From UHGV virus genome UHGV-0074437: DNA of 28,657 bases; one strand, 5' to 3'. Below the pieces are notes generated by a model, which was not told the origin of the DNA, ran no database searches, and worked only from the letters and a program-made list of their open reading frames with translations. Of the stretch, positions 2,749 through 28,657 are shown piece after piece. This stretch comes from a virus. Numbering within the stretch: the stretch's first letter is position 1; each line of letters begins with the position of its first letter. A program made the position numbers and the translations under genes.

Positions 2749-2780
2749 TTTTTTTGCAAATCACAAAGTCCATTTAATGA

Positions 2781-2806
2781 GCCTCGCGATGCGGGGCTTT
2801 TTTATG
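2781..2806 (+). terminator. Candidate intrinsic terminator downstream of the lysis cassette
   Basis: GCCTCGC-GAT-GCGGGGC hairpin (7-bp stem with one G-U pair) followed by TTTTTTAT, 33 nt after the Rz stop. Confidence 0.5.
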
Positions 2807-2931
2807 CGCCTCGCACGCGCAATTCAAACCAAGAACCTTTCAGGATGAACCTTGAGGAACCGGCTGGCTGTCGGAGCCTTCTTGGGGCCGTATTCCTGTG
2901 CGACAAGGTTCATCACTAAAAGGTAACTCCG

Positions 2932-3483
2932 ATGAATGATATTTCTATCGAATATCTGAAAGAAGCACTGGAATACACACCAGATTCAGGTGTTATCCGT
3001 TGGAAGCAGCGCCCCAAAAATCATTTTAAGACCGATAATTCTTGGCGGGCGACCAATGCCAATTTTGCCGGAAAGGTGGCAGGCGCACGTGATAATGATG
3101 GATATTTCCGCATCGGAATAGATGGTCGGTTATATAGATCTCATCGTGTCGCCTGGGCGTTACATTATGGCTATTGGCCTGAGAATGAGATTGATCACAT
3201 TTCAGGCGATAGAGGTGATAACCGCATAGACAACCTCCGAACAGTGACTTCGGCAGCCAACAACAAGAATTTGCGCCTTTACTCCACTAATAAAACAGGT
3301 GTCCCTGGCGTAGGTTGGTATAAAGCACGTGGGAAGTGGAGAGCAAAGATAAACGTCTCTGGAAAGGTGAAGCATATTGGTTACTTCGATGATTTCTGTG
3401 AAGCGGTGAAAGCAAGAAAGGCTGCTGAGATGAAATTGCAATATCACGAAAATCACGGAGCCGGCGACAGGCTCACTTTCTAA
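2932..3483 (+). CDS. HNH homing-type endonuclease with a C-terminal AP2-like DNA-binding domain
   Basis: 183-aa ORF; HNH_3-like motif HRVAWALHYGYWPENEIDHISGDRGDNRIDNLR followed by an AP2-like segment GVPGVGWYKARGKWRAKINVSGKVKHIGYFDDFCEAVKARKAAE; RBS-like AAAGG upstream. Confidence 0.75.
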   Translation: MNDISIEYLKEALEYTPDSGVIRWKQRPKNHFKTDNSWRATNANFAGKVAGARDNDGYFRIGIDGRLYRSHRVAWALHYGYWPENEIDHISGDRGDNRIDNLRTVTSAANNKNLRLYSTNKTGVPGVGWYKARGKWRAKINVSGKVKHIGYFDDFCEAVKARKAAEMKLQYHENHGAGDRLTF

Positions 3484-3497
3484 AAGGTAAAGACGCA

Positions 3498-4016
3498 ATG
3501 AATCATCAATTGGCTAATCTCGATTTCCGGGACATGGTGGTTGTTTCTGGTGATCGCGTGATCACAACCTCCCGCAAGGTAGCAGCTTACTTCGACAAGC
3601 AGCATCACCACATCATTCAGAAAATCGAAAAGCTAGACTGTTCGGATGAATTTCTAACCAGCAACTTTTCGCGGGTTACCTATGAACACAAGGGTAATCA
3701 GTATGTTGAATATGAAATTTCCAAAGACGGCGCGATGTACATCATCATGTCGTTTACCGGCAAAAAAGCTGCCGCCATCAAAGAGGCGTTTATCAAAGCA
3801 TTTAATTGGATGCGTGACAGGCTGATGGAGATGGCTCACTCATACCAAAGAGAGCACAACGAGTTAATGCTGGAGTTCATGAAGGAAAAGGATGTTGCCA
3901 GTATGTCAGGACGCTTGCTGAACCGCTGGGGCAGGATCAAAAAACCGCAACTCATAGCAAGAATCGAAAGGCTTGAGCAGCAGGCGCAAATATCGATCCC
4001 CGGACTGCCAAAGTGA
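3498..4016 (+). CDS. Rha-family phage regulatory protein
   Basis: 172-aa ORF; N-terminal region (VVVSGDRVITTSRKVAAYFDKQHHHIIQKIEKL...YEISKDGAMYIIMSFTGKKAAAIKEAFIKAFNWM) fits the Phage_pRha family pattern as recalled; RBS AAAGG 6 nt upstream. Confidence 0.7.
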   Translation: MNHQLANLDFRDMVVVSGDRVITTSRKVAAYFDKQHHHIIQKIEKLDCSDEFLTSNFSRVTYEHKGNQYVEYEISKDGAMYIIMSFTGKKAAAIKEAFIKAFNWMRDRLMEMAHSYQREHNELMLEFMKEKDVASMSGRLLNRWGRIKKPQLIARIERLEQQAQISIPGLPK

Positions 4017-4249
4017 CCATTCCAAAGCCCAACGGTGATGTTCTCAGAAAAATCGAGCAGGTTAAGGATGATTGCTCGCGTGAGTTTAGCCAACGCAATT
4101 TTGCGTCGGCTTATTATATCGATGAGCAGACCAAAGAGTTCTTAGCCGAGCTGGAGAAAAACCACGAATCTGTGGTTTTTACTGAGCGCGGCGCCCAAGC
4201 CAGTTTTTTTTGCATTACGGCAGTACTTCGAAACAACCCAAGCCAGTAA
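4013..4249 (+). CDS. Hypothetical small protein (GTG start overlapping the Rha stop)
   Basis: 78-aa ORF with no in-frame ATG, so it would need the GTG at 4013 (GTGA overlap with the Rha stop); no recognisable motif. Confidence 0.3.
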   Translation: MTIPKPNGDVLRKIEQVKDDCSREFSQRNFASAYYIDEQTKEFLAELEKNHESVVFTERGAQASFFCITAVLRNNPSQ

Positions 4250-4446
4250 GTGGGGAAATAACACTGGCAGCCACTGAAAGATGAACCTCCAGCCTTATGG
4301 CAAAAAAGATTCTTTGTGGTGGCGGACTGATGGAAAGACATCGGTTATTGCAGAGGCCATTCAATGAGTGGTCTCGACAATGACTTATACCCTACACGGG
4401 ATAACTTAACTGATATCCCTTTTAACGGATAAACGGAGCATAAATA

Positions 4447-4944
4447 ATGGCAAAGCTCACCGACAAACAAGAGCTGTTTGCCCATCCGGATGATGTGTAT
4501 GTCGGAGAGTGTGTGATTTATACCGGCTACATAAATAAGCGAGGGTATGGGCAGAAGCACATTTCACGAAAGCCGCACTACGCACATCGAATCGCATACT
4601 GCGAAGCTAACGGAATTTCGCTAGATAGCATCAAGGACCTGGTTGTTAGGCATAAATGCGATAATCCATCATGCGTGAATCCTGACCATCTGATTATAGG
4701 TACTGTCGCTGACAATAATCGTGACAGGTCAAGGCGAGGCAGAAACTCATACCCTGACCGTTCAGGTGAAAAGAACGGAATGGCGAAATTAAAAGAGTGC
4801 GATGTCATCTGCATTCGACGTGAATATGTCCGCGGGAGCATTGGTAGGGGGCTTAGATCCTTATCAGAGAAATATGGCGTATCGACGACCATGATTGCTG
4901 ACATCGTTAATTATAGAAATTGGAGCAACGTTTCGGGGGTGTGA
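4447..4944 (+). CDS. HNH endonuclease (terminase-associated type)
   Basis: 165-aa ORF; motif HRIAYCEANG...RHKCDNPSCVNPDHLIIGTVADNNRD, typical of zinc-binding HNH endonucleases; located immediately upstream of the terminase small subunit, the usual position for HNH proteins that assist terminase cleavage. Confidence 0.8.
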   Translation: MAKLTDKQELFAHPDDVYVGECVIYTGYINKRGYGQKHISRKPHYAHRIAYCEANGISLDSIKDLVVRHKCDNPSCVNPDHLIIGTVADNNRDRSRRGRNSYPDRSGEKNGMAKLKECDVICIRREYVRGSIGRGLRSLSEKYGVSTTMIADIVNYRNWSNVSGV

Positions 4945-5502: not shown

Positions 5503-7125
5503 ATGCCGTTACCATTTCCCTTCGATTTTAAACATCCTGATTACCAGATGGTTTTTGAATGGCGGATGGAACGCCTACAGCGCATTCGCCAGAATCCTGA
5601 AATATTGCCTGCACTAAAACAGTTTTACCGAACCAACCCGGCTCAGTTCATCATCGACTGGGGCATGACAACGGACCCGCGTAATATTGATTATGGCCTG
5701 CCGGTGACCATTCCGTTTTTACTCTTCCCTAAGCAGGAGGAGTGGATCCACTGGATTATGGAGCGCTGGGGCAATCGGGAGAATGGTATTACCGAAAAAT
5801 CCCGTGAAATGGGACTCAGTTGGACCGCGATCGGACTGGCCTGCTCGCTTTGTCTCTTCAACAAAGAAATGGTTATCGGTTTCGGCTCCCGTAAAGAGGA
5901 ATACGTCGACAGCACCGGGGACCCGAAAGCATTGTTCTGGAAGGCGCGCAAGTTCGTGGAAACACTACCTGTAGAGTTTCGCGGTTCGTGGAGCGAGAAG
6001 AAGCACGCGCCATATATGCGTGTTGAGTTTCCCGATACTGGTGCCGTTATCAAAGGCGAGGCTGGCGACAATATCGGTCGTGGTGACCGTACCACGCTCT
6101 ACCTGGTGGATGAGGCTGCATTCCTCCAGCGTCCTCTGCTGATTGACGCGGCGCTGTCGCAAACCACCCGCTGCCGTATCGACCTGAGTTCGGTTAACGG
6201 CATGGCGAACCCGTTCGCGCAGAAGCGTCACGGCGGGAAGATACCGGTATTCACATTCCACTGGCGGGATGATCCTCGCAAGGATGAAGAGTGGTATCGC
6301 AGGGAATGCGAGAAAATCGATAATCCGGTGGTGGTGGCACAGGAACTTGATCTGAACTACAGCGCATCAGCGGAAGGCGTCCTGATTCCATCCGAATGGG
6401 TACAGGCTGCCGTTGATGCGCATATCAAACTTGGTATCCAGCCAACAGGCAAACGACTTGGCGCGATGGATGTCGCTGATGAAGGCAGGGACAAAAATGC
6501 ATTTTCCACCCGTCATGGCTTCCTCCTGGAAAATGTGCGGGAATGGTCCGGTGTGGGCAGCGACATTTATCAGTCCGTCGAGAAGGTCTTCGGTTTTTGC
6601 GAACAGGACAACCTCGAAGAGTTTCGCTTTGACGAGGACGGGCTGGGCGCTGGCGTTCGCGGCGATGCACGCGCTATCAACGAACTGCGTAACGCTGCGC
6701 GCCGACCGTCAATACTCGCCACACCGTTTCGAGGTAGTGGCGCGGTATTTGATCCGGATGATGAAGCTGTTCGCGGGGACAACGGGCAAGCCGCCCGCCT
6801 GAACAAGGACTTCTTCGCTAACGCCAAGGCCCAGAGCTGGTGGCGGTTACGTAAACTTTTTCAGAATACCTGGCGCGCCGTGGTTGAAGGTATGGCTTAC
6901 AACCCGGACGAAATCATCTCAATCAGCAGTGGCATGGCACTCAAAGATAAACTCATCATCGAGCTTTCGCAGCCGACCTATTCCATTAATGGTGTGGGAA
7001 AAATCGTTATTGATAAACAGCCTGACGGCACCAAGTCGCCGAACCTCGCCGACTCGGTGATGATCAGCTACGCGCCAATGAATTCAGCCCTGAACATCTG
7101 GGAGCTGCTAGGGAGACAGGCCTGA
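5503..7125 (+). CDS. Terminase large subunit
   Basis: 540-aa ORF starting 2 nt after the TerS stop; size, position, a candidate ATPase Walker-B-like segment ([11 protein letters not shown]) and C-terminal nuclease-like acidic residues consistent with TerL. Confidence 0.88.
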
Positions 7126-14327: not shown

Positions 14328-14868
14328 TAACACCAGCACAGAGCGCGGCTGGCTGACACCCACCAGCGGCGATCCGGCTTATGACGAAGCGCTCGACAGG
14401 CTGTTAAGCCAGTGGATGCGTAACGTTTCCGGTCTGTCTGCCGGGATGGTTCGTCCGCGCTGGCAGAAAAATCAGCCGCCACTGCCACCCGTTGAAACGA
14501 ACTGGTGCGCGTTTGGCGTTACCGGGTTGCTCATTGATAACAACCCTGCATTCACCGGGCAGACTGAAGAGGGCGCTCAGCTCTGGAGGCATGAAACGTT
14601 CGAGTGCATGGCGTCGTTCTATGGTCCGGCTGGTATGTCTTATGCGTCCCGTTTTCGCGATGGTATATCTGTCCCGCAAAACAATGCTGAGCTGAACGCG
14701 CTTGGTTTATCCCTTGGCGACTATACCGCTCTGACCCCTTTCCCCGAACTTATCAACCAGCAATGGGTTCGCCGTTACGACATGACGGTGCGACTGCGCC
14801 GGAAGGTTGTCCGCGAGTATGGCATCAAATCGCTGGTGGATGCACCAGTATCATTTTTTGGAGATTAA
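14305..14868 (+). CDS. Putative tail completion / structural protein
   Basis: Open frame 14263-14868; first in-frame ATG at 14305 (alternative TTG at 14320); lies just upstream of the sheath-like gene. Start is uncertain. Confidence 0.45.
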   Translation: MGVLPLSNNTSTERGWLTPTSGDPAYDEALDRLLSQWMRNVSGLSAGMVRPRWQKNQPPLPPVETNWCAFGVTGLLIDNNPAFTGQTEEGAQLWRHETFECMASFYGPAGMSYASRFRDGISVPQNNAELNALGLSLGDYTALTPFPELINQQWVRRYDMTVRLRRKVVREYGIKSLVDAPVSFFGD

Positions 14869-14871
14869 CCT

Positions 14872-16032
14872 ATGGCACAGGGCTTACCTGTATCCAACGT
14901 TGTAAACGTTGATGTGATCATCTCGCCGAAAGCGGCTACTGGTCGTAACTTCGGCGCGCTGCTGATCCTCGGCTCTTCCACTGTCATTCCGGTGCAGGAA
15001 CGCATTCGCCTTTATGCGTCCGTTGAGGACATTGGCGAGGACTTCGGAGTCGACAGCCCGGAATATGAAGCGGCGCAGGTTTTCTTCAGCCAGTCACCGA
15101 AGCCGACACAGGTTTATGTTGGTCGCTGGGCGAAGACGCTGAGTTCTTCCGAGAGTGGAGATACTGAAACTATCGTGCAAGCCGTTAATGCCTGCCTGCA
15201 ATATACCAACTGGTATGGGCTGGTTGTCGCTGATGATGTTGTCGCTGGTGGCGATGTGCTTGATGCTGATGACGTGATTGAGGTCGCCAAACTTATTGAA
15301 GCGTCCAGCCTTAGCCGTATCTTTGGTGTGACCTCTGCCGACGCCGAGATTATCAGCACGACTTCGACGACCGATGTTGCGTCGAAATTAAAGGCTGGCA
15401 AGTATTCCCGTACCTTTGTTCAGTATTCCACCAGCAGCCCTTATGCGGCTGTTTCAGCTTTCGGTCGCGCGTTTACTGTCAATTTCAACGGCAGCAATAC
15501 CACCATTACCCTGAAATTCAAACAGGAACCGAGCGTAACCTACGAAACGCTGACGGTAGGACAGGCGGCGGCTGTGGATGCGAAGAATGCGAACGTGTTC
15601 GTGTACTACGCCAACGACACGGCGATCCTGCAACAGGGCGTCATGGCGAACGGTGACTTCTTCGACGAGCGCCACGGGCTCGACTGGTTGCAGAACTACG
15701 TTCAGACCAACCTCTATAACCTGCTTTACACCAGCACCACCAAAATTCCGCAGACTGATGCCGGTGTGACCCGTCTGCTTTCCAACGTTGAACAGTCCAT
15801 GGATCAGTCCGTCACGAACGGTCTGGTAGCGGCTGGCGTGTGGAATGGTGGACCTATCGGACAGCTGAATTCCGGCGATACGCTGACCAAAGGTTATTAC
15901 GTGTATGCGCAACCTCTTTCAGAACAGGCGCAGGCCGACCGAGAAGCTCGCAAAGCACCGTTAATTCAGGTGGCCTGTAAGCTGGCTGGCGCAGTTCATT
16001 ATGCCGATGTGCAGATCAACGTAGTTCGCTAA
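14872..16032 (+). CDS. Putative tail sheath protein (DUF3383-like as recalled)
   Basis: 386-aa ORF with GGAG RBS, first gene of the tail block, followed by a tube-sized gene, chaperone and tape measure: the sheath position in contractile-tail phages. Confidence 0.5.
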
Positions 16033-16042
16033 GGAGCGATAA

Positions 16043-16483
16043 ATGGCAACTTATTCTTTTCTCGATGTAACCGCGTCGCTCACCGGGCCGACCGGCGTTA
16101 TCGATCTTGGTCAGGGTTCTGCCAACTCTGAGGAAGGTATCACCCAGACCATGGGCGGCAACAAGAACACTATGACCATCGGTGCCGATGGCGAAGTGAT
16201 GCACAGCCTGCACGCCGATAAGTCAGGCACCATTACGGTGACGCTGCTGAAAACCTCCCCGGTGAACAAGAAGCTGTCTCTGGCGTATAACGCGCAAAGC
16301 CAGTCCTCTGCCACCTGGGGCAATAACGTGATCGTCATTCGCAACACGGCATCGGGTGATATTTCTACTGCGCGTTCGTGCGCATTCCAGAAACAGCCTG
16401 ATTTCAATAACGCCAAAGAGGGCGGGACTGTTTCCTGGGTGTTCGACTGCGGCAAGATTGACCAGCTGCTCGGGGAGTTTTAA
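16043..16483 (+). CDS. Putative tail tube protein
   Basis: 146-aa ORF with AAGGAG RBS directly after the sheath-like gene and before the chaperone. Confidence 0.5.
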   Translation: MATYSFLDVTASLTGPTGVIDLGQGSANSEEGITQTMGGNKNTMTIGADGEVMHSLHADKSGTITVTLLKTSPVNKKLSLAYNAQSQSSATWGNNVIVIRNTASGDISTARSCAFQKQPDFNNAKEGGTVSWVFDCGKIDQLLGEF

Positions 16484-16486
16484 CGC

Positions 16487-16912
16487 ATGGAATTCGAAAT
16501 TAAAGGCGTGAAATATCGCACCGCAAAGCTCAGCGTTTTCGAACAGCTGAAGGTGTCCCGCAAGCTGTTGCCGGTGCTGGCCGGGATGGTTTCTGACTTT
16601 CGGAGCGTTCAGGAGAAGATCAGCAGCAAAGACACCGAAGGTGCGATGGCTACCATCCTGCCAAAGATTGCCAATGCTGTGTCCGATCTGAGCGATGGCG
16701 ACGTGGACGCTATCCTGTTCCCCTGCCTTTCCGTTGTTTCACGCGAGCACATGAAAGGCTGGGTGCCGGTCTGCCAGCATGGCGAAATGGCGTTTGACGA
16801 TATCGACCTGTTGACCATGCTGCAACTGGTGGCGCGGGTGGTCGCCGACTCGCTGGGAAATTTTTTGCAAGGACTCCCTACCAGCGAGACGCCCACCCCG
16901 CCAGCGGAATAA
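16487..16912 (+). CDS. Tail assembly chaperone (short, unshifted form)
   Basis: 141-aa acidic ORF immediately upstream of the tape measure gene; contains the slippery heptamer T_TTT_TTG at 16861-16867 near its 3' end. Confidence 0.7.
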   Translation: MEFEIKGVKYRTAKLSVFEQLKVSRKLLPVLAGMVSDFRSVQEKISSKDTEGAMATILPKIANAVSDLSDGDVDAILFPCLSVVSREHMKGWVPVCQHGEMAFDDIDLLTMLQLVARVVADSLGNFLQGLPTSETPTPPAE

Positions 16913-19731: not shown

Positions 19732-20033
19732 ATGTAACTGAAATCCCTTTATCGCCGGATAACCAGCTATTTCGCATTCAGTTAGCAGAGACAACATACA
19801 CGCTGAGAGTCATTTGGCGTGATTCTGCTGGCTGGATTCTGGATGTACAAGATAGCAGTGGCGCACCGCTTCTTTCTGGTGTGCCGCTGGTAACCGGTGT
19901 AAATCTTCTTGAGCAATATCCTCAACTAGGTATTAACGGGGCGCTGCTCGTTGGCTGCGATGTAGGCGCACCGGACGAGCCCACCAAAACCAACCTCGGC
20001 ACATACAGCCACCTCATTTTCGTACAGGAGTAG
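19728..20033 (+). CDS. Putative small baseplate-associated protein
   Basis: 101-aa ORF translationally coupled (ATGA overlap) within the baseplate gene string. Confidence 0.4.
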   Translation: MNVTEIPLSPDNQLFRIQLAETTYTLRVIWRDSAGWILDVQDSSGAPLLSGVPLVTGVNLLEQYPQLGINGALLVGCDVGAPDEPTKTNLGTYSHLIFVQE

Positions 20034-20035
20034 AA

Positions 20036-21106
20036 ATGTCTCTTAACTGGATGCGCCATTTTGAGTTGCAGCTGTTGGACCAGAACGGGCAGGGCGTTTC
20101 CCTGTCTGACTTTAAGGTCACATTCCAGATCGAGTGGGCAGACACACGCTGGCCGCGCGTGGCTAACGTAAAGGTCTATAACCTTTCTACCACCACCACT
20201 AATAAGATCCTTGGGCAGGAGTTTGCCAAAATTCGCATCATTGCCGGGTATGACGGTATAGCGCCGGATGTTGATGCGAGCCAGGTTGGTGTGTCCCGGG
20301 AGATTTCACCAGACCAGATAGGGCAGGTGAACGGTCAGAACTACGGCCTGATTTTTGACGGTGATATTCGCTTCACCGTCACCGGGAAGGACAACATTAC
20401 GGATTCCTGGGTGTTGATTCAGGCCATTGGTGATCACGAAGCGTTCCTCTATGCGACCACCATCACCACGCTTGCCGCTGGCTATACCGTTGCGGACCTG
20501 CACCGGGCGACGATGCAGGATTTCAACGCGTTCGGCGTGACACAGGGCATTACCGGCGATTTTCCTGATACCGTGTTTCCTCGTGGCCGCGCGATTTACT
20601 CATCCAGCCGCAACGTGATGGATAATATTGCTGCGCAGTGCAAAGCGACATGGCAACTGGTGGATGGTCAGGTCCAGATGGTGCCGGAGGATAAATATAT
20701 TCACGAAGCCATTGTGTTGAATGCCGATACTGGCCTGATCGGTATGCCGCAACAAACGATGGGCGGCGGCGTAAACGTGCGGTGTCTGATAAACCCGAAC
20801 ATCCGCATTAATGGTCTTATCCAGCTCGATCAGGCTTCGGTGTACCGCGCGACAGTTGGCAACTCCGATATTGCGCAGTCGCTTGGGCGGATCGGGACGT
20901 CTGTATATAATGGGAACATCGAAAGTGACACGTTACCCAGCAAACAACAGGCTGCCAGCATTGCGACAGATGGCGTTTATATCGTCAAAGCTATCGACTA
21001 TACTGGTGACACCAGAGGTCAGGCGTGGTACATGGATTTGATGTGTTTTGCGCGTGGGGCTCGTGATCTTTATAGCCCGAAAGCAATGCAAGGGACGACG
21101 AATTAG
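20036..21106 (+). CDS. Putative baseplate hub protein (Mu gp44 / P2 gpD-like by position)
   Basis: 356-aa ORF with AGGAG RBS, upstream of the spike V, W-like and J genes, matching the Mu-type baseplate gene order as recalled. Confidence 0.5.
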   Translation: MSLNWMRHFELQLLDQNGQGVSLSDFKVTFQIEWADTRWPRVANVKVYNLSTTTTNKILGQEFAKIRIIAGYDGIAPDVDASQVGVSREISPDQIGQVNGQNYGLIFDGDIRFTVTGKDNITDSWVLIQAIGDHEAFLYATTITTLAAGYTVADLHRATMQDFNAFGVTQGITGDFPDTVFPRGRAIYSSSRNVMDNIAAQCKATWQLVDGQVQMVPEDKYIHEAIVLNADTGLIGMPQQTMGGGVNVRCLINPNIRINGLIQLDQASVYRATVGNSDIAQSLGRIGTSVYNGNIESDTLPSKQQAASIATDGVYIVKAIDYTGDTRGQAWYMDLMCFARGARDLYSPKAMQGTTN

Positions 21107-21118
21107 TGAGGTGGGGCC

Positions 21119-21463
21119 GTGAGACATTTACTTTGCACTGTTACCGTGTTCGCGGTGCTTATATCAGCACCAGCTTTTGCGGATCAGCAATGTGGTGATT
21201 TTAAAATCCATTGGGCAGATGATGGCTTAGCCAGAATCAATGGCGCAAAGCCAGAAATGCAAAAAATCACCTTCCTGAAAAACAAAGGCGATTATAACAA
21301 TATCAAGATGGATTGGCGTATGGCTACCGATCAGCCTGGAAGATGGGTTGGTCTTGAGTACATCAATCGAAACGGCAAGATAATTCTCAATGCCCAGTGG
21401 CTGCAAGCCAGCATGAATGCGCCGCGTCAGTATGCAACATACGACTGCCGAAAAGTAAAATAG
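21119..21463 (+). CDS. Small secreted (periplasmic) protein of unknown function; moron candidate
   Basis: 114-aa ORF with GTG start at 21119 and GAGGTGGGG RBS; clear Sec signal peptide (hydrophobic core, AFA-DQQ cleavage site); two cysteines in the mature part; region is markedly AT-rich relative to the flanking structural genes. Confidence 0.55.
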   Translation: MRHLLCTVTVFAVLISAPAFADQQCGDFKIHWADDGLARINGAKPEMQKITFLKNKGDYNNIKMDWRMATDQPGRWVGLEYINRNGKIILNAQWLQASMNAPRQYATYDCRKVK

Positions 21464-21481
21464 CCCGCCAGATAGGCGGGC
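21463..21481 (-). terminator. Intrinsic terminator for the minus-strand moron gene
   Basis: Perfect 7-bp GC stem GCCCGCC-agata-GGCGGGC; a U-rich tract follows on the minus strand (plus-strand AAAAGTAAAATA at 21450-21462), whereas no T-tract follows on the plus strand. Confidence 0.55.
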
Positions 21482-21486
21482 ATGCG

Positions 21487-21777
21487 TCAAAAATATTGAG
21501 CTTTAATTATAATAAACACAATAATTACGAACAGGATGTTTCTAATTATTTTTTGCTTATGAGTAAGTTGTTTTTTTTCTGTCGATTTCCCGGGAGAGTA
21601 AAGGTTAGTGGTATGCGACAGCCCCGTGCCGGGAAGGCCATTTGTCATCTTTACGCCTTTTTTCCCGATGTTAATGGTGGAACCTTTACCACCAATTGAA
21701 GTGCTTACTCCGCTTTTGCTAATGTTGATCGCGAGTCCGGGCGCAATCCGGATTCTTTTGCGAAATCTAAAGCCCAT
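21487..21777 (-). CDS. Small membrane-anchored protein, DUF4236-like N-terminus (as recalled) with C-terminal transmembrane helix; moron candidate
   Basis: 96-aa ORF on the strand opposite to the whole structural operon; strong RBS AGGAG 6 nt before the ATG; Gly/Lys/Ser-rich N-terminal segment GFRFRKRIRIAPGLAINISKSGVSTSIGGKGSTINIGKKGV; C-terminal hydrophobic helix NILFVIIVFIIII; AT-rich codon usage. Confidence 0.55.
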   Translation of the reverse strand: MGFRFRKRIRIAPGLAINISKSGVSTSIGGKGSTINIGKKGVKMTNGLPGTGLSHTTNLYSPGKSTEKKQLTHKQKIIRNILFVIIVFIIIKAQYF

Positions 21778-21964
21778 TTGTTACTCCTGTAGTCAAGAAT
21801 GCGATGGTGCAGGTCCACTCTATGGCGGCTTCATGGCTGAAATTGATTTTTAATGCTTACTTGTTGCAAATATATCCTAATACACCTTGTGAATATGTGC
21901 CATTGCAGCGGAAAAGCCTTACTTCACACTGATGTAGCTTAGTTACTAAGAGATAATTGATACC

Positions 21965-21990
21965 AAACCAGCTTCGGCTGGTTTTTTTAT
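21965..21990 (+). terminator. Intrinsic terminator (UUCG-loop hairpin plus T7 tract) immediately upstream of the baseplate spike gene
   Basis: AAACCAGC-ttcg-GCTGGTTT followed by TTTTTTT, then GGGG and the ATG at 22000; no annotated plus-strand gene ends here. Confidence 0.55.
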
Positions 21991-21999
21991 GGGGTTTTT

Positions 22000-22740
22000 A
22001 TGCCAATTCCTACTCAATCACAGATCGGCGGCGAGCAGCAGACCGCGCAGGCCATTGCCGATTCGGTGTCTACTCAGATGCGCGTAGCGATGCCTGGCAT
22101 CATTCAGTCGTTCGATCCTGACGCTGTAACCTGCACAGTAGAGGTGGCGCTTCGCGGTATTGTTGGCGACGACTCCACCGAATTAAAACCGCTGGTGGAT
22201 GTGCCTGCCATCTTCCCGCGCGGAGGCGGTTGCACGCTGACCTTTCCGGTAAAAGAAGGAGATGAGTGCCTGCTGATCTTTGCCGACCGTTGCATCGATT
22301 TCTGGTGGCAGAGCGGCGGCGTTCAGGAGACCGTCGACCCGCGCCAGCATGACTTATCTGATGCGTTCGCCATCGTTGGCCCGCAGTCGCAAGCGCAAAA
22401 AATCAGCGGTATCAGTACCAGCGCCGCGCAGCTGCGAACCGATGATGGTGCGGCGTTCGTAGAGGTTTCCGCAGGACATAACATCACCGTTCAAACACCG
22501 GGCCAGCTCACGGCTACGGCTGAAGGTGGAACGACAATCACATCCCCGACTATCACGCTGAACGGCAACGTAACGATTAATGGCAATCTGTCTCAGGGAA
22601 TGGGAGAAAGTGGTGGTACTGCGACGATGCTTGGGCCGGTTACGGTAACGAATGATGTGACAGCTTCAGGTATAAGTGTCGCCACGCATAAACATGGCGG
22701 AGTTCAGACAGGCGGGGGAACTACTGGAGGGCCGCAATAA
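22000..22740 (+). CDS. Baseplate spike / assembly protein V-like (Mu gp45 type)
   Basis: 246-aa ORF; N-terminal OB-fold-like region then a Gly/Thr-rich repetitive C-terminus (TITSPTITLNGNVTINGNLSQG...), typical of gpV/gp5-type spikes; followed by W-like and J genes. Confidence 0.7.
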   Translation: MPIPTQSQIGGEQQTAQAIADSVSTQMRVAMPGIIQSFDPDAVTCTVEVALRGIVGDDSTELKPLVDVPAIFPRGGGCTLTFPVKEGDECLLIFADRCIDFWWQSGGVQETVDPRQHDLSDAFAIVGPQSQAQKISGISTSAAQLRTDDGAAFVEVSAGHNITVQTPGQLTATAEGGTTITSPTITLNGNVTINGNLSQGMGESGGTATMLGPVTVTNDVTASGISVATHKHGGVQTGGGTTGGPQ

Positions 22741-23093
22741 TGCGATACCGACGAGAAGATGCTGACGGCGATTACACTTTCGGGCAAGGTGACGACACCT
22801 TCCTTATCGACAGTCCGGAATGTGTCGCCCAGGCCGTAAAAACCCGTTTCGAGCTCTGGCGCGGTCAGTGGTTTCTCGATCTGACGGAAGGCACGCCGTA
22901 TGTTCAGTCAGTGCTTGGGAAACAGCGATCAGACGTCTACATCCTGGCTATACGCGAACGCATACAGGACACGCCGGGCGTTCTGTCGATTCTTTCCTTC
23001 GATACCAATTATGACGGCACCAGCCGCCGCGTCACTTTCACTTCCTCCATTGACACAATCTACGGCCAGACGACTGTAACAAGCGAGGCATAA
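22740..23093 (+). CDS. Baseplate wedge protein (GPW / gp25-like)
   Basis: 117-aa ORF overlapping the V-like stop (ATAATG), of the size and position of P2 gpW / Mu gp46. Confidence 0.6.
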   Translation: MRYRREDADGDYTFGQGDDTFLIDSPECVAQAVKTRFELWRGQWFLDLTEGTPYVQSVLGKQRSDVYILAIRERIQDTPGVLSILSFDTNYDGTSRRVTFTSSIDTIYGQTTVTSEA

Positions 23094-24293
23094 ATGGCTT
23101 TGAACCTCGACACGCTGGGGCTATCGGCAACGGTAACCGCCCAGGGGATTAGTGCGCCTGATTACCAGACAATCCTCGATACACTGACCAGCTATTTCAG
23201 GCAGATTTACGGTAGTGATGCCTACCTAGAACCAGACAGCAAAGATGGGCAAATGGTCGCGCTGGTGGCTCTGGCTGTGCATGATGCTAACAATACCGCT
23301 ATCGAGATCTACAACTCGTTTTCACCGACGACAGCGCAGTCCGCAGCGCTTAGCAGCAATGTGAAAATTAACGGGATCACGCGAAAAGTAGCGACAAACT
23401 CTACTGCTGACCTTCTGTTAACCGGTACGGCGGGCACGACTATCACGAATGGCTCCGCACGGGATAAAAACGGCATTATCTGGAATTTTCCCGCGAGTGT
23501 AGCAATCGGGGTTGATGGTACTGTGCTGGTGACGGCCACATGTGCGAATAGCGGTTCGGTTGCGGCGCTGGCCGGGTCGATTACCACTATCAACACGCCG
23601 ACCCGTGGCTGGGCATCGGTAACCAACCCGGCGGCGGCCACCGTAGGCGCACCGGCTGAAACCGACGCAGAGCTGCGCATCAGGCAGGGACAAAGCGTAG
23701 CGCTACCATCCCTCACACCGTTTGAAGGTGTCGATGGTGCGATCGCCAACGTTGCAGGCGTGACACGTCACAAGCTCTACGAGAATGATACTGGTGTCAC
23801 CGACAGCAACGGGCTACCGCCTCATTCCATTTCCGCCATCGTTGATGGAGGTGATGTTGCCGAGATAGCCCAGACAATAAGGGGAAACAAAGGGCAGGGA
23901 ACAGCCACCTACGGGACAACATCTGTCACGGTGCCGGACACCTACGGTAACCCACACGTGATCAGTTTTTCGCGGTCTACTGATGTCCCGATTTACGGGC
24001 ATATCACCCTGAAAGCATTCACCGGCTACACGTCGCAAATTGGTGTACAGATTCAGCAGGCCGTCGCGGATTACATCAACGGGCTGACGATCGGCGACGA
24101 TGTGCTGCTGAGCAGGATCTACTCTCCGGCTAACCTCGGCGTAGTGAGTGGTGGCAACGCGCGCTACTACGACATACAGGAGCTGTTGATTGGCAAATCA
24201 GCTGGTAGCGTCGCGGCGGCAAACATCATCATCGCCTATAACGAATCCGCGTCGTGTAAGCCCGAAAATATTGTTCTAACGGTGACGTCATGA
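23094..24293 (+). CDS. Baseplate J-like protein
   Basis: 399-aa ORF of the size and position of Baseplate_J family proteins (P2 gpJ / Mu gp47), between the W-like and I-like genes. Confidence 0.7.
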   Translation: MALNLDTLGLSATVTAQGISAPDYQTILDTLTSYFRQIYGSDAYLEPDSKDGQMVALVALAVHDANNTAIEIYNSFSPTTAQSAALSSNVKINGITRKVATNSTADLLLTGTAGTTITNGSARDKNGIIWNFPASVAIGVDGTVLVTATCANSGSVAALAGSITTINTPTRGWASVTNPAAATVGAPAETDAELRIRQGQSVALPSLTPFEGVDGAIANVAGVTRHKLYENDTGVTDSNGLPPHSISAIVDGGDVAEIAQTIRGNKGQGTATYGTTSVTVPDTYGNPHVISFSRSTDVPIYGHITLKAFTGYTSQIGVQIQQAVADYINGLTIGDDVLLSRIYSPANLGVVSGGNARYYDIQELLIGKSAGSVAAANIIIAYNESASCKPENIVLTVTS

Positions 24294-24970
24294 GCAAGTA
24301 CACGGACTTAATCACCAACTATCACGCCACGAAGCCGAAATTTTTTGATCACGTCGACCTGAGCACCCGGCCACTGATTGATATCACTGCCGCCACCAGA
24401 GGGCTGCTAAGCGCTTTCGATATTGATACCGCCGTCGGCGTCCAGCTCGATACGCTCGGCCTCTGGATTGGCCGTAGTCGAATAGTCAGCCAGCCGATAA
24501 GTGGCGTTTATTTCAGTCTGGACACTGACGGGCTTGGGTTTGATCAGGGAGTATGGCAAGGCCCATATGACCCCGATTCGGGTTACACCACGCTGAGCGA
24601 CGAAACTTATCGCATCGTTCTTAAGGCGAAAATCGCTATCAACAACTGGGACGGCCGGAATGATTCGCTGCCTCCCATCCTTGACGCTGCAACTGCAGGC
24701 TCTGGCCTGAAGATGCAAATCGTCGACAACCAGGACATGACGATCTCGGTCTGGCTTTTTCCCGAGACTGACATTTCAGATGTGTCTCTCGAACTGATCG
24801 CCGCTATTAAACAGGGCTATCTCACTGTTAAAGCTGCTGGGGTGTGGGCCGGAGACGTTGAAACGCCATCGGTAGAAACACCATCCGAGGGCACGAAATT
24901 TTTTGGTTTTGATATGGATAACGAATACATCGCCGGATTTGACGATGGCGCATGGGGGAAATTACTGTAA
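24290..24970 (+). CDS. Baseplate/tail protein I-like (Mu gp48 position)
   Basis: 226-aa ORF overlapping the J stop (ATGA), directly upstream of the tail fibre gene. Confidence 0.55.
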   Translation: MSKYTDLITNYHATKPKFFDHVDLSTRPLIDITAATRGLLSAFDIDTAVGVQLDTLGLWIGRSRIVSQPISGVYFSLDTDGLGFDQGVWQGPYDPDSGYTTLSDETYRIVLKAKIAINNWDGRNDSLPPILDAATAGSGLKMQIVDNQDMTISVWLFPETDISDVSLELIAAIKQGYLTVKAAGVWAGDVETPSVETPSEGTKFFGFDMDNEYIAGFDDGAWGKLL

Positions 24971-25866
24971 TGGCTAAGAACGATTTTAAACCGTTTGCTA
25001 CCGGCTCTGGCGCAAACGTAATGTCCCAGACTGACTGGGAAGCACTGCCTGCGCTTTTGGCTGGATTTCAGTCTGGCAAGGCATCCAGTGCACAAATTAA
25101 CAAGGCATTTCGACAGTCCAGCTTTATCGCGGCCGCACTCGCTCAGTTTATTGCTGATACCAACGGTACTGATGTCCTGGATAATGGGAATTTTTCTGAC
25201 ATTGTTCTTAAATTGAAGTCTGCAATATCTACTGCTTCTACAGGACGTTTGTTGAATGTCAGAACGTTCACATCATCAGGAACGTATACGCCAACAGCAG
25301 GTACTAAGTTTGTTGTTGTGGAAGTTCAGGGCGGCGGTGGCGGCAGTGGCGGTGTGCCAGCTACTGGGTCCAGTAGCGTTGCTGCATCTGGCGCTGGCGG
25401 TGCAGGTGCTTATGCTAAAGCTTATATCACATCCGGATTTTCTGGCGTGTCTGTTACTGTAGGTGCTGGTGGTGCTGCTGGATCATCAGGCGGCGGTGAT
25501 GGTGGCGCGGGAGGCACCTCAAGCTTTGGGTCATTAGTCTCTTGCCCAGGTGGAACTGGTGGCGGCTCTACGGGAAGTGTCGCTGTGTCGTTCCCAACTT
25601 CTCGCGGAGGCAGTACAGAAACGGCAGCCCCTACAGGCGGTAACATTATTTCATCAAAAGGAAAGGCGGGTGCTGGTTCTACCGTAGTAAATGGAACTGT
25701 CGGTAACTTTGGCACAGGTGCGGCATCGCCATTCTCAGCAGGTGGAACTGGTGGCGATGGGGAGAACGGTTCTGGTGGCGGTGGATGGATTAACTTTGTC
25801 AGCCAATCCGCTCGCGCTGGCTACGCAGGTGGCAAAGGTCTGGTTGTTGTATGGGAATATGCTTGA
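24970..25866 (+). CDS. Tail fibre protein with a glycine-rich C-terminal domain
   Basis: Open frame 24952-25866; preferred start ATG 24970 (overlaps the upstream stop as TAATG, GGGGGA RBS), giving N-terminus MAKNDFKPFATGSGANVMSQTDWEALP; C-terminal half is a Gly-rich low-complexity region (GGGGGSGG, GAGGAAGSSGGGDGGAGG, GGTGGDGENGSGGGG). Confidence 0.75.
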   Translation: MAKNDFKPFATGSGANVMSQTDWEALPALLAGFQSGKASSAQINKAFRQSSFIAAALAQFIADTNGTDVLDNGNFSDIVLKLKSAISTASTGRLLNVRTFTSSGTYTPTAGTKFVVVEVQGGGGGSGGVPATGSSSVAASGAGGAGAYAKAYITSGFSGVSVTVGAGGAAGSSGGGDGGAGGTSSFGSLVSCPGGTGGGSTGSVAVSFPTSRGGSTETAAPTGGNIISSKGKAGAGSTVVNGTVGNFGTGAASPFSAGGTGGDGENGSGGGGWINFVSQSARAGYAGGKGLVVVWEYA

Positions 25867-25914
25867 TGAGCACAGTTGATTGTTGGTTTTGATATGAACC
25901 AGTAATTAACCATT

Positions 25915-25950
25915 AAAGCAGGGACTTTGTAACATAGCTCCCTGCTTTAT
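25915..25950. terminator. Candidate bidirectional terminator between the convergent tail fibre and acyltransferase genes
   Basis: 10-bp inverted repeat AAAGCAGGGA / TCCCTGCTTT (25915-25924 and 25939-25948) around a 14-nt loop, flanked by A-rich and T-rich sequence, between the two stop codons (25866 and 25978). Confidence 0.4.
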
Positions 25951-25977
25951 ACTCTAAATATTATGCAACCCTCACTT

Positions 25978-27141
25978 CTATCTGGCTTGAGATATTGAAA
26001 TAGATTTTGTTTTCCGCCCATACATCAAACGGCTAAGCGATATAGATGGGTTATCTATAAGCTTTGTAAATAAATGTGCTATTATTATGCTTGTGGGAAT
26101 CGTAAACACCCATACATAAATTGGGCTGTATTTATATAGTAAAAGTAACCCTATAGAAAGAATTGTATAATGTATAAGGTATAGCGAGAAAGATATTCTC
26201 CCAAGATAAAGACCAACAGACAGGAACTTACCCTCTTTTAATTTAAGTGAGCACACGATTAATCCAACGGCACCGATAGATGTCACAATATCACCAAGAC
26301 CTCTGTGTGATAAAGTCCATCCATTATTAAATGGGTAGCAATACAGCATTAAAGAAATTATCACCAGCAGGAATATGATTTTCTTGTCTATATTATTCAT
26401 TATTTCATTAGTTCTTTTCACATTTAAAGCAAGGTATGCACCAATTGTAAAAAATAACGAGTAATGAACTGTTAACAGGCTTGAGCTTAGGGGGTCTATA
26501 CCGTATAGATGCGGTTTAGAGTTCATGATAAATATACTAAGCATCGATGCCAACAAGGATAGCAGCACAAAGCGAAAGCCAAGTTTTTTCGTAAAGTACA
26601 GAATTAAAGGAAACGCTATCGAAATTCTAGCCTCGTAAACTAAGGACCATGCTGGAGGGTTTATTTCGAAGTAATTGTAAAACCCCAGCATGCCAATGTG
26701 ATTAACTATTGTTGCTAGATTGAAGTCTGGTTTTGCTACGCCCATCCATCCTTTTTCCCAGGAAAAACCACTTGATTTCATGACTGCAAAGACAATAGCC
26801 ACAAATAATAATGATGCAATGAATGGAATGTATAGGCGAGCTACCCTGGCTAACAGATATCTAAACATATTAAATGGATTTGCTGAGTTGATCATCATTG
26901 TTAAAGCAAACCCACTCAACACAAAGAAAACAATAACAGCTTGATGTCCAGCCCACAGAAAGCGAAATGGTGACCATTCAAGATACGGCCAGATAGTGGG
27001 GTTGTTATATAATCCAGCAACGGTTGTGTGAGCAAGCAAAACCGTTAGAGCAGCATAACCCCTAACTGCATCAAGAGATGGGATTCGTTTTGTATCTTTC
27101 ATTACTATTCTCATTTTAGTTTGTTGAGTCAATACTAACAT
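25978..27141 (-). CDS. Acyltransferase family 3 integral membrane protein (putative O-antigen / LPS O-acetyltransferase, lysogenic-conversion type)
   Basis: Minus-strand ORF with about 10 predicted transmembrane segments; N-terminal region KRIPSLDAVRGYAALTVLLAHT...FFVLSGFALT matches the acyltransferase_3 (OafA/Oac-type) signature; strongly AT-rich. Three candidate in-frame ATG starts (27141, 27114, 27102); the third gives MKDTKRIP, the usual N-terminus for this family. Confidence 0.8.
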   Translation of the reverse strand: MLVLTQQTKMRIVMKDTKRIPSLDAVRGYAALTVLLAHTTVAGLYNNPTIWPYLEWSPFRFLWAGHQAVIVFFVLSGFALTMMINSANPFNMFRYLLARVARLYIPFIASLLFVAIVFAVMKSSGFSWEKGWMGVAKPDFNLATIVNHIGMLGFYNYFEINPPAWSLVYEARISIAFPLILYFTKKLGFRFVLLSLLASMLSIFIMNSKPHLYGIDPLSSSLLTVHYSLFFTIGAYLALNVKRTNEIMNNIDKKIIFLLVIISLMLYCYPFNNGWTLSHRGLGDIVTSIGAVGLIVCSLKLKEGKFLSVGLYLGRISFSLYLIHYTILSIGLLLLYKYSPIYVWVFTIPTSIIIAHLFTKLIDNPSISLSRLMYGRKTKSISISQAR

Positions 27142-27457
27142 CCATCTGGAGGTTTAAGAAACATCCTCAGCATCCATAACACTTAAGGCTGGCGCCAGCA
27201 CAGAGAAAGCGAAATGGTGACCATTCAAGATACGGCCAGATAGTGGGGTTGTTATATAATCCAGCAACGGTTGTGTGAGCAAGCAAAACCGTTAGAGCAG
27301 CATAACCCCTAACTGCATCAAGAGATGGGATTCGTTTTGTATCTTTCATTACTATTCTCATTTTAGTTTGTTGAGTCAATACTAACATCCATCTGGAGGT
27401 TTAAGAAACATCCTCAGCATCCATAACACTTAAGGCTGGCGCCAGCACAGAGAAAGC
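26957..27457. repeat. Tandem direct duplication (2 x 247 bp plus 7 bp) covering the 5' end and upstream region of the acyltransferase gene
   Basis: 26957-27203 is repeated identically at 27204-27450 (checked at several anchor points); identity continues 7 nt (AGAAAGC, 27451-27457) into a third unit; the junctions coincide with the short direct repeat AGAAAGC. Confidence 0.85.
27167..27388 (-). pseudogene. Truncated duplicate of the acyltransferase 5' end (62 identical N-terminal codons plus an 11-codon out-of-context tail)
   Basis: Minus-strand ORF whose first 62 residues are identical to the acyltransferase N-terminus, then diverge at the duplication junction into CAGASLKCYGC-stop. Confidence 0.7.
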
Positions 27458-27550
27458 ACTTGCCGCACTTCATTAAAATTTCGCAAATTTTTCTAATTGG
27501 CAAGAATGAATATCATCCGGACCAAGTAGTTATGACTAACCATGAACAGC

Positions 27551-27575
27551 AAACCCCGCTTCGGCGGGTTTTTTA
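27551..27575 (+). terminator. Intrinsic terminator (UUCG-loop hairpin plus T-tract) immediately upstream of the RBS of the next plus-strand gene
   Basis: AAACCCCGC-ttcg-GCGGG followed by TTTTTTATT, then AAGGAG RBS and the ATG at 27595; same architecture as the 21965-21990 element. Confidence 0.5.
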
Positions 27576-27594
27576 TTGCACTAAGGAGTGCTCA

Positions 27595-27978
27595 ATGCAA
27601 TACGCATTAGTCAAAGACGGTGTCGTTGAAAACATAGTTGAATGGGATGGGACCGGAAATCCCTTTCCTGATTATGAAGTGATTGCAGTAAGCGCAGGCG
27701 GCGTGGGTGTGGGATGGTTATGGCAGGATGGGGTATTCGTTAACCCTAACGCACCATCGGAACCGACTGATGCCGAGTTGTATGACGCTGATCTTGCGGC
27801 GATCAACGCAGAGTACGAAAAGGACAAAAAGGACCTGGTATACGAATACGCAACTATCGGCCTTTTCGACGGTGCAAATGAGGACGCAAAGAAAGCGGCT
27901 GTGTACAGCAAGCTGCAGGCGCGGATTCAAAAGTACGCTTCTGATGTAGAAGCTCTGGATGAGAAATATGGGGGTTAA
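27595..27978 (+). CDS. Hypothetical protein, possibly tail-fibre-associated (assembly/chaperone candidate by position)
   Basis: 127-aa product from the ATG at 27595 with a strong AAGGAG RBS; the open frame extends upstream to 27460 but that part overlaps the terminator-like hairpin; acidic C-terminal half; no motif recognised with certainty. Confidence 0.5.
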   Translation: MQYALVKDGVVENIVEWDGTGNPFPDYEVIAVSAGGVGVGWLWQDGVFVNPNAPSEPTDAELYDADLAAINAEYEKDKKDLVYEYATIGLFDGANEDAKKAAVYSKLQARIQKYASDVEALDEKYGG

Positions 27979-27979
27979 C

Positions 27980-28147
27980 ATGGCAGAACAAGCAGAAAGC
28001 AGCGCAGCAACTACCGTACCCGATACATGTCCGAACTGTCTGGAAGTTGGGACGGTGAGCATCATTACAAAGACGATCGGAGGGGTAGTTAAATACTACT
28101 ACCAGTGTTCGTCTTGCGGCTATCGCTGGCCGGTACCAGCTGCATAA
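27980..28147 (+). CDS. Small zinc-ribbon protein (CxxC-x22-CxxC)
   Basis: 55-aa product from the ATG at 27980 (GGGGG 5 nt upstream, 1-nt gap after the preceding stop); cysteine pairs CPNC and CSSC separated by 22 residues. Confidence 0.5.
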   Translation: MAEQAESSAATTVPDTCPNCLEVGTVSIITKTIGGVVKYYYQCSSCGYRWPVPAA

Positions 28148-28208
28148 ATTTATTCCCCATCAAAACAAACCGATACCGCGCTTCGGTAGTAAAGAGGCGC
28201 ATCTTCAG

Positions 28209-28252
28209 TTGATCTGCTGGAACCTGAAATTATACTGTATGCGTATACAGTA
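28209..28252 (+). promoter_or_regulatory. SOS-regulated promoter: -35 TTGATC (28209-28214), -10 TATACT (28231-28236), overlapping a LexA box TACTGTATGCGTATACAGTA (28233-28252)
   Basis: The 20-bp palindrome matches the E. coli LexA-box consensus CTGT-N8-ACAG with TA-rich flanks; the sigma70-like hexamers are spaced 16 nt apart and overlap the box; located 15 nt upstream of the umuD-like start codon. Confidence 0.75.
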
Positions 28253-28267
28253 TTTTGGAGGTGCATC

Positions 28268-28657
28268 ATGGGATTTCCATCGCCAGCAGCAGACTACGTT
28301 GAAGAACGCATATCACTCGATAAGCGTCTTATCGCTCATCCTTCAGCCACCTACATGATGGTAGCGGGCTCTACATACCTGCGCGCTGGGATCATGAAGG
28401 GCGCAATGCTTATCGTCGACTCGTCGCTGACGCCGAAGGATGGTTCTCTGCTTGTCTGTGCTGTTGATGGTGAGTTCAGGATCATGCGTTACAGGACGCT
28501 GCCGCATCCTTGCCTGGAGAACCCTGAGAATGGAAGGAGGGAGCCACTACCATCAAAGGATGAGGTATCTGATACATCGCGGCCAGTATTCGGGGTGATT
28601 ACGTACAGCATCAACGATGCTCGCTCTGGCGAGTTCGACGACTGCCCGGTGATGTGA
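28268..28657 (+). CDS. UmuD'-like S24-peptidase-fold protein (natively N-truncated UmuD homolog, humD-like)
   Basis: 129-aa ORF with GGAGG RBS; N-terminus MGFPSPAADYVEERI aligns with E. coli UmuD beginning at the Cys24-Gly25 autocleavage site (as recalled); S24 core motifs present (HPSATYMM, GAMLIVDSS, VCAVDGEF). There is no in-frame upstream ATG. The stop is at the last base of the window. Confidence 0.8.
   Translation: MGFPSPAADYVEERISLDKRLIAHPSATYMMVAGSTYLRAGIMKGAMLIVDSSLTPKDGSLLVCAVDGEFRIMRYRTLPHPCLENPENGRREPLPSKDEVSDTSRPVFGVITYSINDARSGEFDDCPVM

Follow-up and report, generated by a model that had tools for sequence, protein, structure and literature searches.

A terminator hairpin as the probable right-hand joint of a tail fibre/chaperone cargo slot in a Q-regulated myovirus prophage of E. 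coli

Morons that carry terminators inside antiterminated late operons have been an established concept since about 2000. In lambda, tR' and the internal late-operon terminators are overridden by Q-modified RNA polymerase, and Q read-through past moron terminators is the accepted logic for lambdoid late operons. A moron is defined by its own promoter and terminator and by a deviant GC content (PMC3594210). P22-like phages possess a variable moron 5' of the tailspike gene in their Q-dependent late operon, with ten types among sixteen genomes (PMC2629481), and in T4-like phages the short, conserved stem-loop intergenic motifs termed PeSLs lie at exchange points between unrelated cassettes (PMC2839356, PMC4122927). 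The oac1b O-acetyltransferase gene of Shigella flexneri 1b, which was cloned with putative promoter and terminator regions, lies on a chromosomal prophage segment together with genes for tail-fibre and baseplate proteins (PMC3630932).

We analyzed a 28,657-nt stretch of DNA, UHGV virus genome UHGV-0074437 (hereafter the window), which covers the late half of an E. coli myovirus prophage with lambdoid regulation. Its gene order runs from RusA, NinH and Q through a PR'-like promoter, a terminator and lysis genes to terminase, head and tail genes. All elements that define a Q operon (Q protein, late promoter and promoter-proximal terminator) are present on the plus strand: a lambda-type Q antiterminator gene (545-1168; PF03589, E = 1e-57), and a PR'-like promoter (TTGACT-17-TAAATT, 1211-1239) directly upstream of a strong tR'-like terminator with a 13-bp stem (1273-1301). 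This succession of Q gene, late promoter and immediately following terminator is that of lambda, and Q may act here as well. The late region contains three further canonical plus-strand terminators (2779-2799, 21965-21991 and 27555-27574). The 2779-2799 terminator is positioned directly 3' of the Rz lysis gene and upstream of another accessory block (2779-4944), which encodes an HNH endonuclease, a Rha/ORF11CD3 protein and a second HNH endonuclease ahead of the small terminase gene.

The element at 27551-27597 reads, 5' to 3' on the plus strand, AAAC-CCCGC-TTCG-GCGGG-TTTTTT-ATTGCACT-AAGGAG-TGCTCA-ATG. An A-tract (AAAC, 27551-27554) precedes a stem-loop (27555-27568; stems 27555-27559 and 27564-27568, loop 27560-27563) that is closed by a cUUCGg tetraloop and followed by a six-T terminator U-tract (27569-27574). 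The T-run is spaced 20 nt from the ATG at 27595, and a Shine-Dalgarno sequence (AAGGAG, 27583-27588) lies 6 nt upstream of that start codon; the UUCG hairpin, U6 tract, strong ribosome-binding site and ATG 27595 named in the initial annotation can thus all be read in the sequence. The stem comprises 5 bp in the window and 7-8 bp in relatives, because an extra C at 27554, specific to the window-type (class A) junction, blocks A-U extension and keeps the A-tract out of the stem.

A pattern scan of positions 20000-28657 returned 13 terminator-like plus-strand sites, compared with 7.7 +/- 2.4 in shuffled sequences, and ranked the 27555 site among the top (5/5 G-C pairs, loop of 4). We calculated an energy of -8.7 kcal/mol for the stem-loop alone and -9.7 kcal/mol in context, and a TransTermHP-style tail score of -5.47 that at least equals that of the tR'-like terminator at 1273-1301. 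On the reverse strand the T-tail is poor (GTTTGCTGTT, score -2.97), and the element is therefore predicted to be essentially unidirectional; we rejected a role as a minus-strand terminator protecting the acyltransferase promoter on the same ground. The fold z-score of the 46-nt stretch around the hairpin is unremarkable (-1.4), and the case for a terminator is therefore one of anatomy and conservation across relatives, not of energy. In all related loci recovered, the hairpin, T-run and Shine-Dalgarno sequence agree exactly or to within one base, and the stem does not vary across these loci; the rate of about 2 changes per 40 nt does not differ significantly from the 12.5% variable sites in coding sequence. 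An Rfam search gave no match that reached the gathering threshold (35-50 bits), and we rejected the isrK, isrB and Trp-leader matches as terminator-driven and sub-threshold. Judged by its sequence, the 27555 element is a canonical Rho-independent terminator of textbook anatomy, with a predicted termination activity. The pattern scan showed no promoter-like site overlapping or adjoining the hairpin, and the ribosome-binding site and ATG come after it. With only 20 nt between T-run and ATG and no room for a promoter, the downstream gene must be transcribed through the hairpin, and read-through by Q-modified polymerase is a plausible way of doing so.

Upstream of the hairpin lies a 1.69-kb accessory island (25868-27554) that begins at a fibre stop codon and ends at the hairpin foot. 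Its GC content is 34-42%, compared with 50-58% in the backbone. The initial description of a terminator on the downstream edge of an acyltransferase island, abutting the next late gene, is borne out. The last late gene before the island encodes a 304-aa tail fibre with a glycine-rich C-terminal domain (24952-25866, plus strand). The island itself carries a minus-strand gene for a 387-aa acyltransferase-3 family protein (25978-27141; PF01757, phrog_3333 O-acetyltransferase). A strong hairpin, AAAGCAGGGA...TCCCTGCTTT (25914-25949; -18 kcal/mol, z = -3.7), separates the convergent fibre and acyltransferase genes, and is where the acyltransferase transcript likely ends. For the window's acyltransferase, the analysis gave no convincing promoter. 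All genes of the island upstream of the 27555 hairpin are on the minus strand, and no annotated plus-strand gene ends there. The 5' end of the acyltransferase gene and its upstream region are covered by a tandem duplication (26948-27441; 2 x 247 bp, 99% identical), which has created a 73-aa minus-strand ORF (27167-27388) that copies the enzyme's N-terminus (phrog_3333 positions 3-34). Called-gene spacing is equal in the other class A loci listed, which suggests that these also carry the 247-bp duplication. Searches with the island DNA, down to distant sensitivity, gave no match in the collections of phage genomes and of complete E. coli genomes.

The gene downstream of the hairpin (27595-27978, plus strand) encodes a 127-aa protein for which Pfam gave no match. 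It shares 49% identity over its N-terminal 76 aa with P0004, a Caudo_TAP protein, and 36% identity over its C-terminal half with proteins of Vibrio phages that are annotated as tail fibre assembly proteins. An ORF resembling the 127-aa gene lies directly 3' of a window-type fibre tip on an invertible segment in two relatives. From these similarities, the 127-aa gene probably encodes a tail-fibre assembly chaperone. A 59-aa ORF with a four-cysteine zinc-ribbon pattern (27968-28147), called in several relatives, overlaps the end of the chaperone gene by 11 nt. The last gene, at the right end of the prophage, encodes a HumD/UmuD-like S24 peptidase (28268-28657, plus strand). The humD promoter (TTGATC-16-TATACT, 28209-28236) overlaps a perfect LexA box (CTGT-N8-ACAG, 28235-28250; TACTGTATGCGTATACAGTA spans 28233-28252), making humD an apparent SOS-controlled cargo gene, independent of transcription through the hairpin and of the late operon. 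In related assemblies the host gene dacD comes after humD, which indicates that the late operon ends here.

We collected 16 loci with the 127-aa gene, using exact-protein look-ups and BLAST; a search of species-representative genomes with the 127-aa protein yielded no locus. The 16 loci fall into two classes, with class A corresponding to the window type. Class B loci carry an unlike acyltransferase on the plus strand, only 25-26% identical to the window's protein. The stop codon of this 361-370-aa, co-oriented acyltransferase gene lies 17 nt before the same hairpin. We found this layout in at least seven related prophages (loci L001, L003, L004, L006, L011, L012, L014, L316 and L318), spanning at least two different tail-module backbones and two integration sites. 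In one of them (L001), the acyltransferase gene has a sigma-70 promoter (TTGAAT-16-TATAAT, 10/12 match) 29 nt upstream of its ATG. By its sequence features, the class B unit is a classical moron of promoter, gene and terminator. It fully matches the concept of the lambdoid moron terminator developed for HK97 and HK022, namely a deviant-GC gene in the late operon with its own promoter and a downstream terminator. The window differs from this concept, in that its cargo gene is on the opposite strand and the 27555 hairpin is not that gene's terminator. The initial annotation had proposed a special insulation element; in most relatives, the hairpin is merely the predicted terminator of a co-oriented acyltransferase moron.

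Comparison of the two classes delimits the island. Between the window and every class B locus, homology starts exactly at 27555, the first base of the stem, and this breakpoint identifies the hairpin as the right-hand joint of the slot. The left edge is the fibre stop codon, as one class B locus (L004) joins a window-type fibre end to a class B island. The hairpin is perfectly conserved in class A loci and also in class B, despite 7-12% divergence in the adjacent gene. The earlier guess that such hairpins may be recombination joints is borne out here to the extent that the island edge coincides with the homology breakpoint between alternative islands. We infer recombination at the hairpin from these breakpoints only, and selection for intact genes could also produce such a pattern.

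Other relatives lack the island altogether. In five of them (Citrobacter phage Omnitron, L002, and loci L296, L241, L248 and L317), fibre and Tfa genes are 0-12 nt apart and the hairpin is absent. Many IMG/VR relatives likewise have adjacent fibre and Tfa genes, where the window and class B loci carry a 1.1-1.7 kb insert. Together with the gene-end position in class B, the absence of the hairpin from island-free relatives indicates that the 27555 hairpin is cargo-associated at this site. By the usual moron criteria, the island is present in some close relatives and absent in others, and is deviant in GC content. Scanning metagenomes for the RBS-ATG junction alone recovered one further locus, again of class B, and no island-free arrangement of fibre, hairpin and 127-aa gene.

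Two other arrangements appeared at this position among the relatives. One class B prophage (L011) contains direct repeats of a hairpin unit of about 30 nt (3742-3774 and 5961-5993; 31/33 identical) that flank its fibre and acyltransferase pair, and these repeats might allow the two genes to be deleted or exchanged together. In Omnitron, an invertible fibre segment (14497-16612), also seen in close relatives, replaces the window's acyltransferase slot. The segment contains a Caudo_TAP gene, two minus-strand alternative fibre/chaperone ORFs and a Gin/Cin-type resolvase-family invertase.

A sister element lies before the baseplate hub/spike gene, which encodes a gpV-type protein with an Apex motif (22000-22740, plus strand). 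As the initial annotation described, it consists of a hairpin and T-run (AAACCAGC-TTCG-GCTGGTTT and T-run, 21965-21991, plus strand) ending 8 nt before the ATG at 22000; our pattern scan likewise lists 21965-21984 as a plus-strand terminator-like site. We fetched 80 relatives with the wedge protein, of which 71 loci were scorable. A plus-strand hairpin and T-run stand 15-23 nt upstream of the spike ATG in 70 of the 71, at any distance to the preceding conserved gene (gap 67-1386 nt). Three of these loci are island-free (gap 67-69 nt) and keep the hairpin. The exception (L280, about 5640-5700) has no hairpin and shows that at least one prophage can do without the element. On this comparative evidence, the spike-site terminator is a family-wide intercistronic feature, not solely an insertion-borne one.

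Loci with different upstream cargo differ in the sequence of the spike-site hairpin and agree in the T-run, the ribosome-binding site and the ATG. At least four unrelated hairpins, each paired with its own upstream cargo, precede one and the same downstream flank, TTTTTTTATGGGGTTTTTATGCC. Among the 52 loci of the other flank class, 51 share an unchanged 6-bp stem, compared with 10 variants of the loop and 28 variants of the upstream 12 nt, a pattern that we take as evidence for selection on the spike-site stem. The slot itself, between the phrog_3443 gene and the spike gene (21464-21999 in the window; L236-L315), shows more than 20 architectures in the 71 relatives; orientation counts for this slot are approximate, because our simple ORF caller mislabels some small island genes and disagrees with called or annotated genes in L007 and L001. 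Its cargo includes a YafO-type toxin and partner gene (L241), a TPR-like protein with a 140-153-aa partner (L254), an OB-fold secreted protein (L238), small signal-peptide proteins (L002, L292), DUF4282 (L007) and, in the window, DUF4236. A third slot, before the fibre gene of the second backbone, behaves in the same way as the spike slot.

These data revise part of the picture first drawn from the window sequence. The idea of a recurring design holds insofar as hairpin-closed slots recur (at 27555, at the spike gene and in the third slot), and fails insofar as the spike-site hairpin also stands in relatives without an insertion, an outcome that the initial annotation itself had named as counting against its proposal. 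The same division appears in the comparison of island boundaries, where classes A and B break at the hairpin foot of the 27555 site, and the spike gene keeps its hairpin with or without an island. The initial annotation had further set these hairpins apart from those at ordinary operon ends, a distinction that does not hold for the 27555 sequence. The exact 20-mer CCCGCTTCGGCGGGTTTTTT is abundant in viral contigs, with at least 120 matches in each of two scans. Among the matches listed, a co-oriented ORF ends upstream, at a median distance of 21 nt, in 145 of 168 unique contexts from unrelated phages (86%), and in 60 of those 145 the T-run is followed by the start of a co-oriented gene at a median distance of 16.5 nt. 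The arrangement of the window, with a divergent gene upstream and a co-oriented gene downstream, occurs in 4 of the 168 contexts among the matches listed. As judged from these contexts, the hairpin is an ordinary, widely used phage terminator.

We propose that the 27555 terminator is the fixed right-hand joint of a cargo slot between fibre and chaperone genes in a Q-regulated lambdoid myovirus prophage of E. coli, and assign this reading a probability of about 70%. In the commoner layout, that of class B, the slot would hold a late-strand moron made up of a sigma-70 promoter, an acyltransferase gene and the hairpin. In a class B lysogen, the hairpin would end the cargo transcript and so spare the chaperone gene from run-in transcription. 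In the window, promoter and gene would have been swapped for an unrelated, low-GC acyltransferase cassette on the opposite strand, with the old terminator kept and the incoming inverted cassette bringing its own 3' hairpin (25914-25949). This order of events, class B before class A, is an assumption, and the window configuration looks derived. Since no annotated plus-strand gene ends at the window hairpin, we infer its present use: the retained terminator would now be limited to stopping rightward transcripts from the AT-rich island, or stray read-through. Q-modified RNA polymerase coming from the PR'-like promoter would override the hairpin during lytic growth and express the chaperone gene, an override that is needed because this gene lies downstream of the hairpin without a promoter.

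The closest competitor accepts the terminator and denies it a present role. The cassette swap could have left a real terminator sequence that is now functionless, and harmless since Q-modified polymerase ignores the hairpin. The rarity of the window-type arrangement (4/168 contexts among the matches listed), the weaker 5-bp stem caused by the extra C at 27554, and the loss of the analogous spike-site hairpin in L280 would all fit such an orphan. We nevertheless consider it unlikely, given that the hairpin is perfect in all class A loci, and equally so in class B next to a gene that has diverged by 7-12%, and that the near-invariance of the sister 6-bp stem (51/52) beside a variable loop and flank argues for selection in this phage family. 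That the hairpin is simply a chance, functionless inverted repeat is scarcely credible: the unremarkable z-score of the 46-nt fold (-1.4) is in its favor, but the exact element stands at the same junction in all relatives, ends a gene in class B and is an abundant terminator sequence in phage contigs, comparative data that effectively refute this reading.

Two further readings give the hairpin a different RNA context. It could form the 3' end of a short plus-strand sRNA or leader that starts within 27442-27550, divergent from the acyltransferase promoter. The geometry fits, as the hairpin is preceded by about 110 nt of non-coding sequence specific to the island, and Rfam gives sub-threshold matches to isrB here (20.8 bits, 27509-27574) and to isrK at the sister site (23.4 bits, 21905-21987). 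These scores are far below the 35-50-bit thresholds, however, and the aligned columns are essentially the terminator; moreover, the pattern scan found no plus-strand promoter-like site in 27389-27550, and class B loci hold a coding gene at that place, making an sRNA or leader improbable. Alternatively, the hairpin could be a 5' structural element of the chaperone mRNA (a stabilizer, a processing site or a translational control) rather than a terminator. It lies only 20 nt upstream of the ATG, and similarly spaced hairpin-RBS-ATG junctions are very common in phage contigs. On the other hand, the predicted structure leaves both the Shine-Dalgarno sequence and the ATG untouched, the U6 tract directly behind a G+C stem is the signature of a terminator, and the same hairpin stands at gene ends in 86% of contexts, many of them without a following gene; we regard a 5' element as quite improbable.

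The junction of hairpin and ribosome-binding site has a wider distribution. In phage contigs of 37-69% GC (IMG/VR loci L015-L235 and L319-L402), we observed a widespread grammar of hairpin, T6, (A/T/G)(T/A)TGCC, YGGAG, N5-8 and ATG. The pentamer ATTGC follows the exact hairpin in 19 of 120 sampled matches (16%), compared with about 0.1% expected. We also considered the 17-mer T6-ATTGCC-YGGAG as a single mobile cassette tied to the hairpin, an idea that is weakened by the occurrence of TTTTTTATTGCCCGGAG after at least 67 different hairpins. A more speculative reading, which we hold to be doubtful, is that junctions of the form AACCCGC-loop-GCGGG-T6-(A/T)TTGCC-YGGAG-ATG may serve as portable homology patches for swaps of cargo and receptor-binding cassettes in temperate phages of Proteobacteria. 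Room for it comes from the identical 20-25-mer in more than 116 unrelated contexts, the excess of ATTGC after the hairpin, the breakpoints that coincide with the hairpin at three slots in this phage family, and the two copies that bracket the fibre and acyltransferase pair of L011. If true, such patches would be a temperate-phage counterpart of the T4 PeSL system, with the 27555 hairpin as one of them. The likeness to PeSLs lies in the breakpoints, which in three slots map to the foot of the hairpin (27555) or to the T-run; the difference is that a PeSL is a composite of early promoter and stem-loop, whereas the hairpin here has no promoter motif.

Returning to the proposed cargo slot, the P22-like tailspike moron region is alike in being a variable, non-morphogenetic region beside a receptor-binding or tail gene in a Q-type late operon. 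It differs from the present locus, where the tail module is that of a myovirus, the cargo comprises acyltransferases, a toxin-antitoxin pair and small secreted proteins, and a regulatory circuit such as arc/mnt/ant is absent. The oac1b locus of S. flexneri is comparable in setting; its integration site and gene order are unlike those of the window. Our analysis documents a known design in a new prophage, and adds an example rather than a new principle. For annotation, it defines a terminator-closed cargo slot that extends from the fibre stop codon to base 27554 and swaps different O-antigen-type acyltransferases beside the genes for receptor binding in an E. coli prophage. Before the spike gene lies a second and much busier slot with toxin-antitoxin genes, small secreted proteins and other cargo. 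Terminator-closed slots of this kind are landmarks for finding lysogenic-conversion and defence genes.
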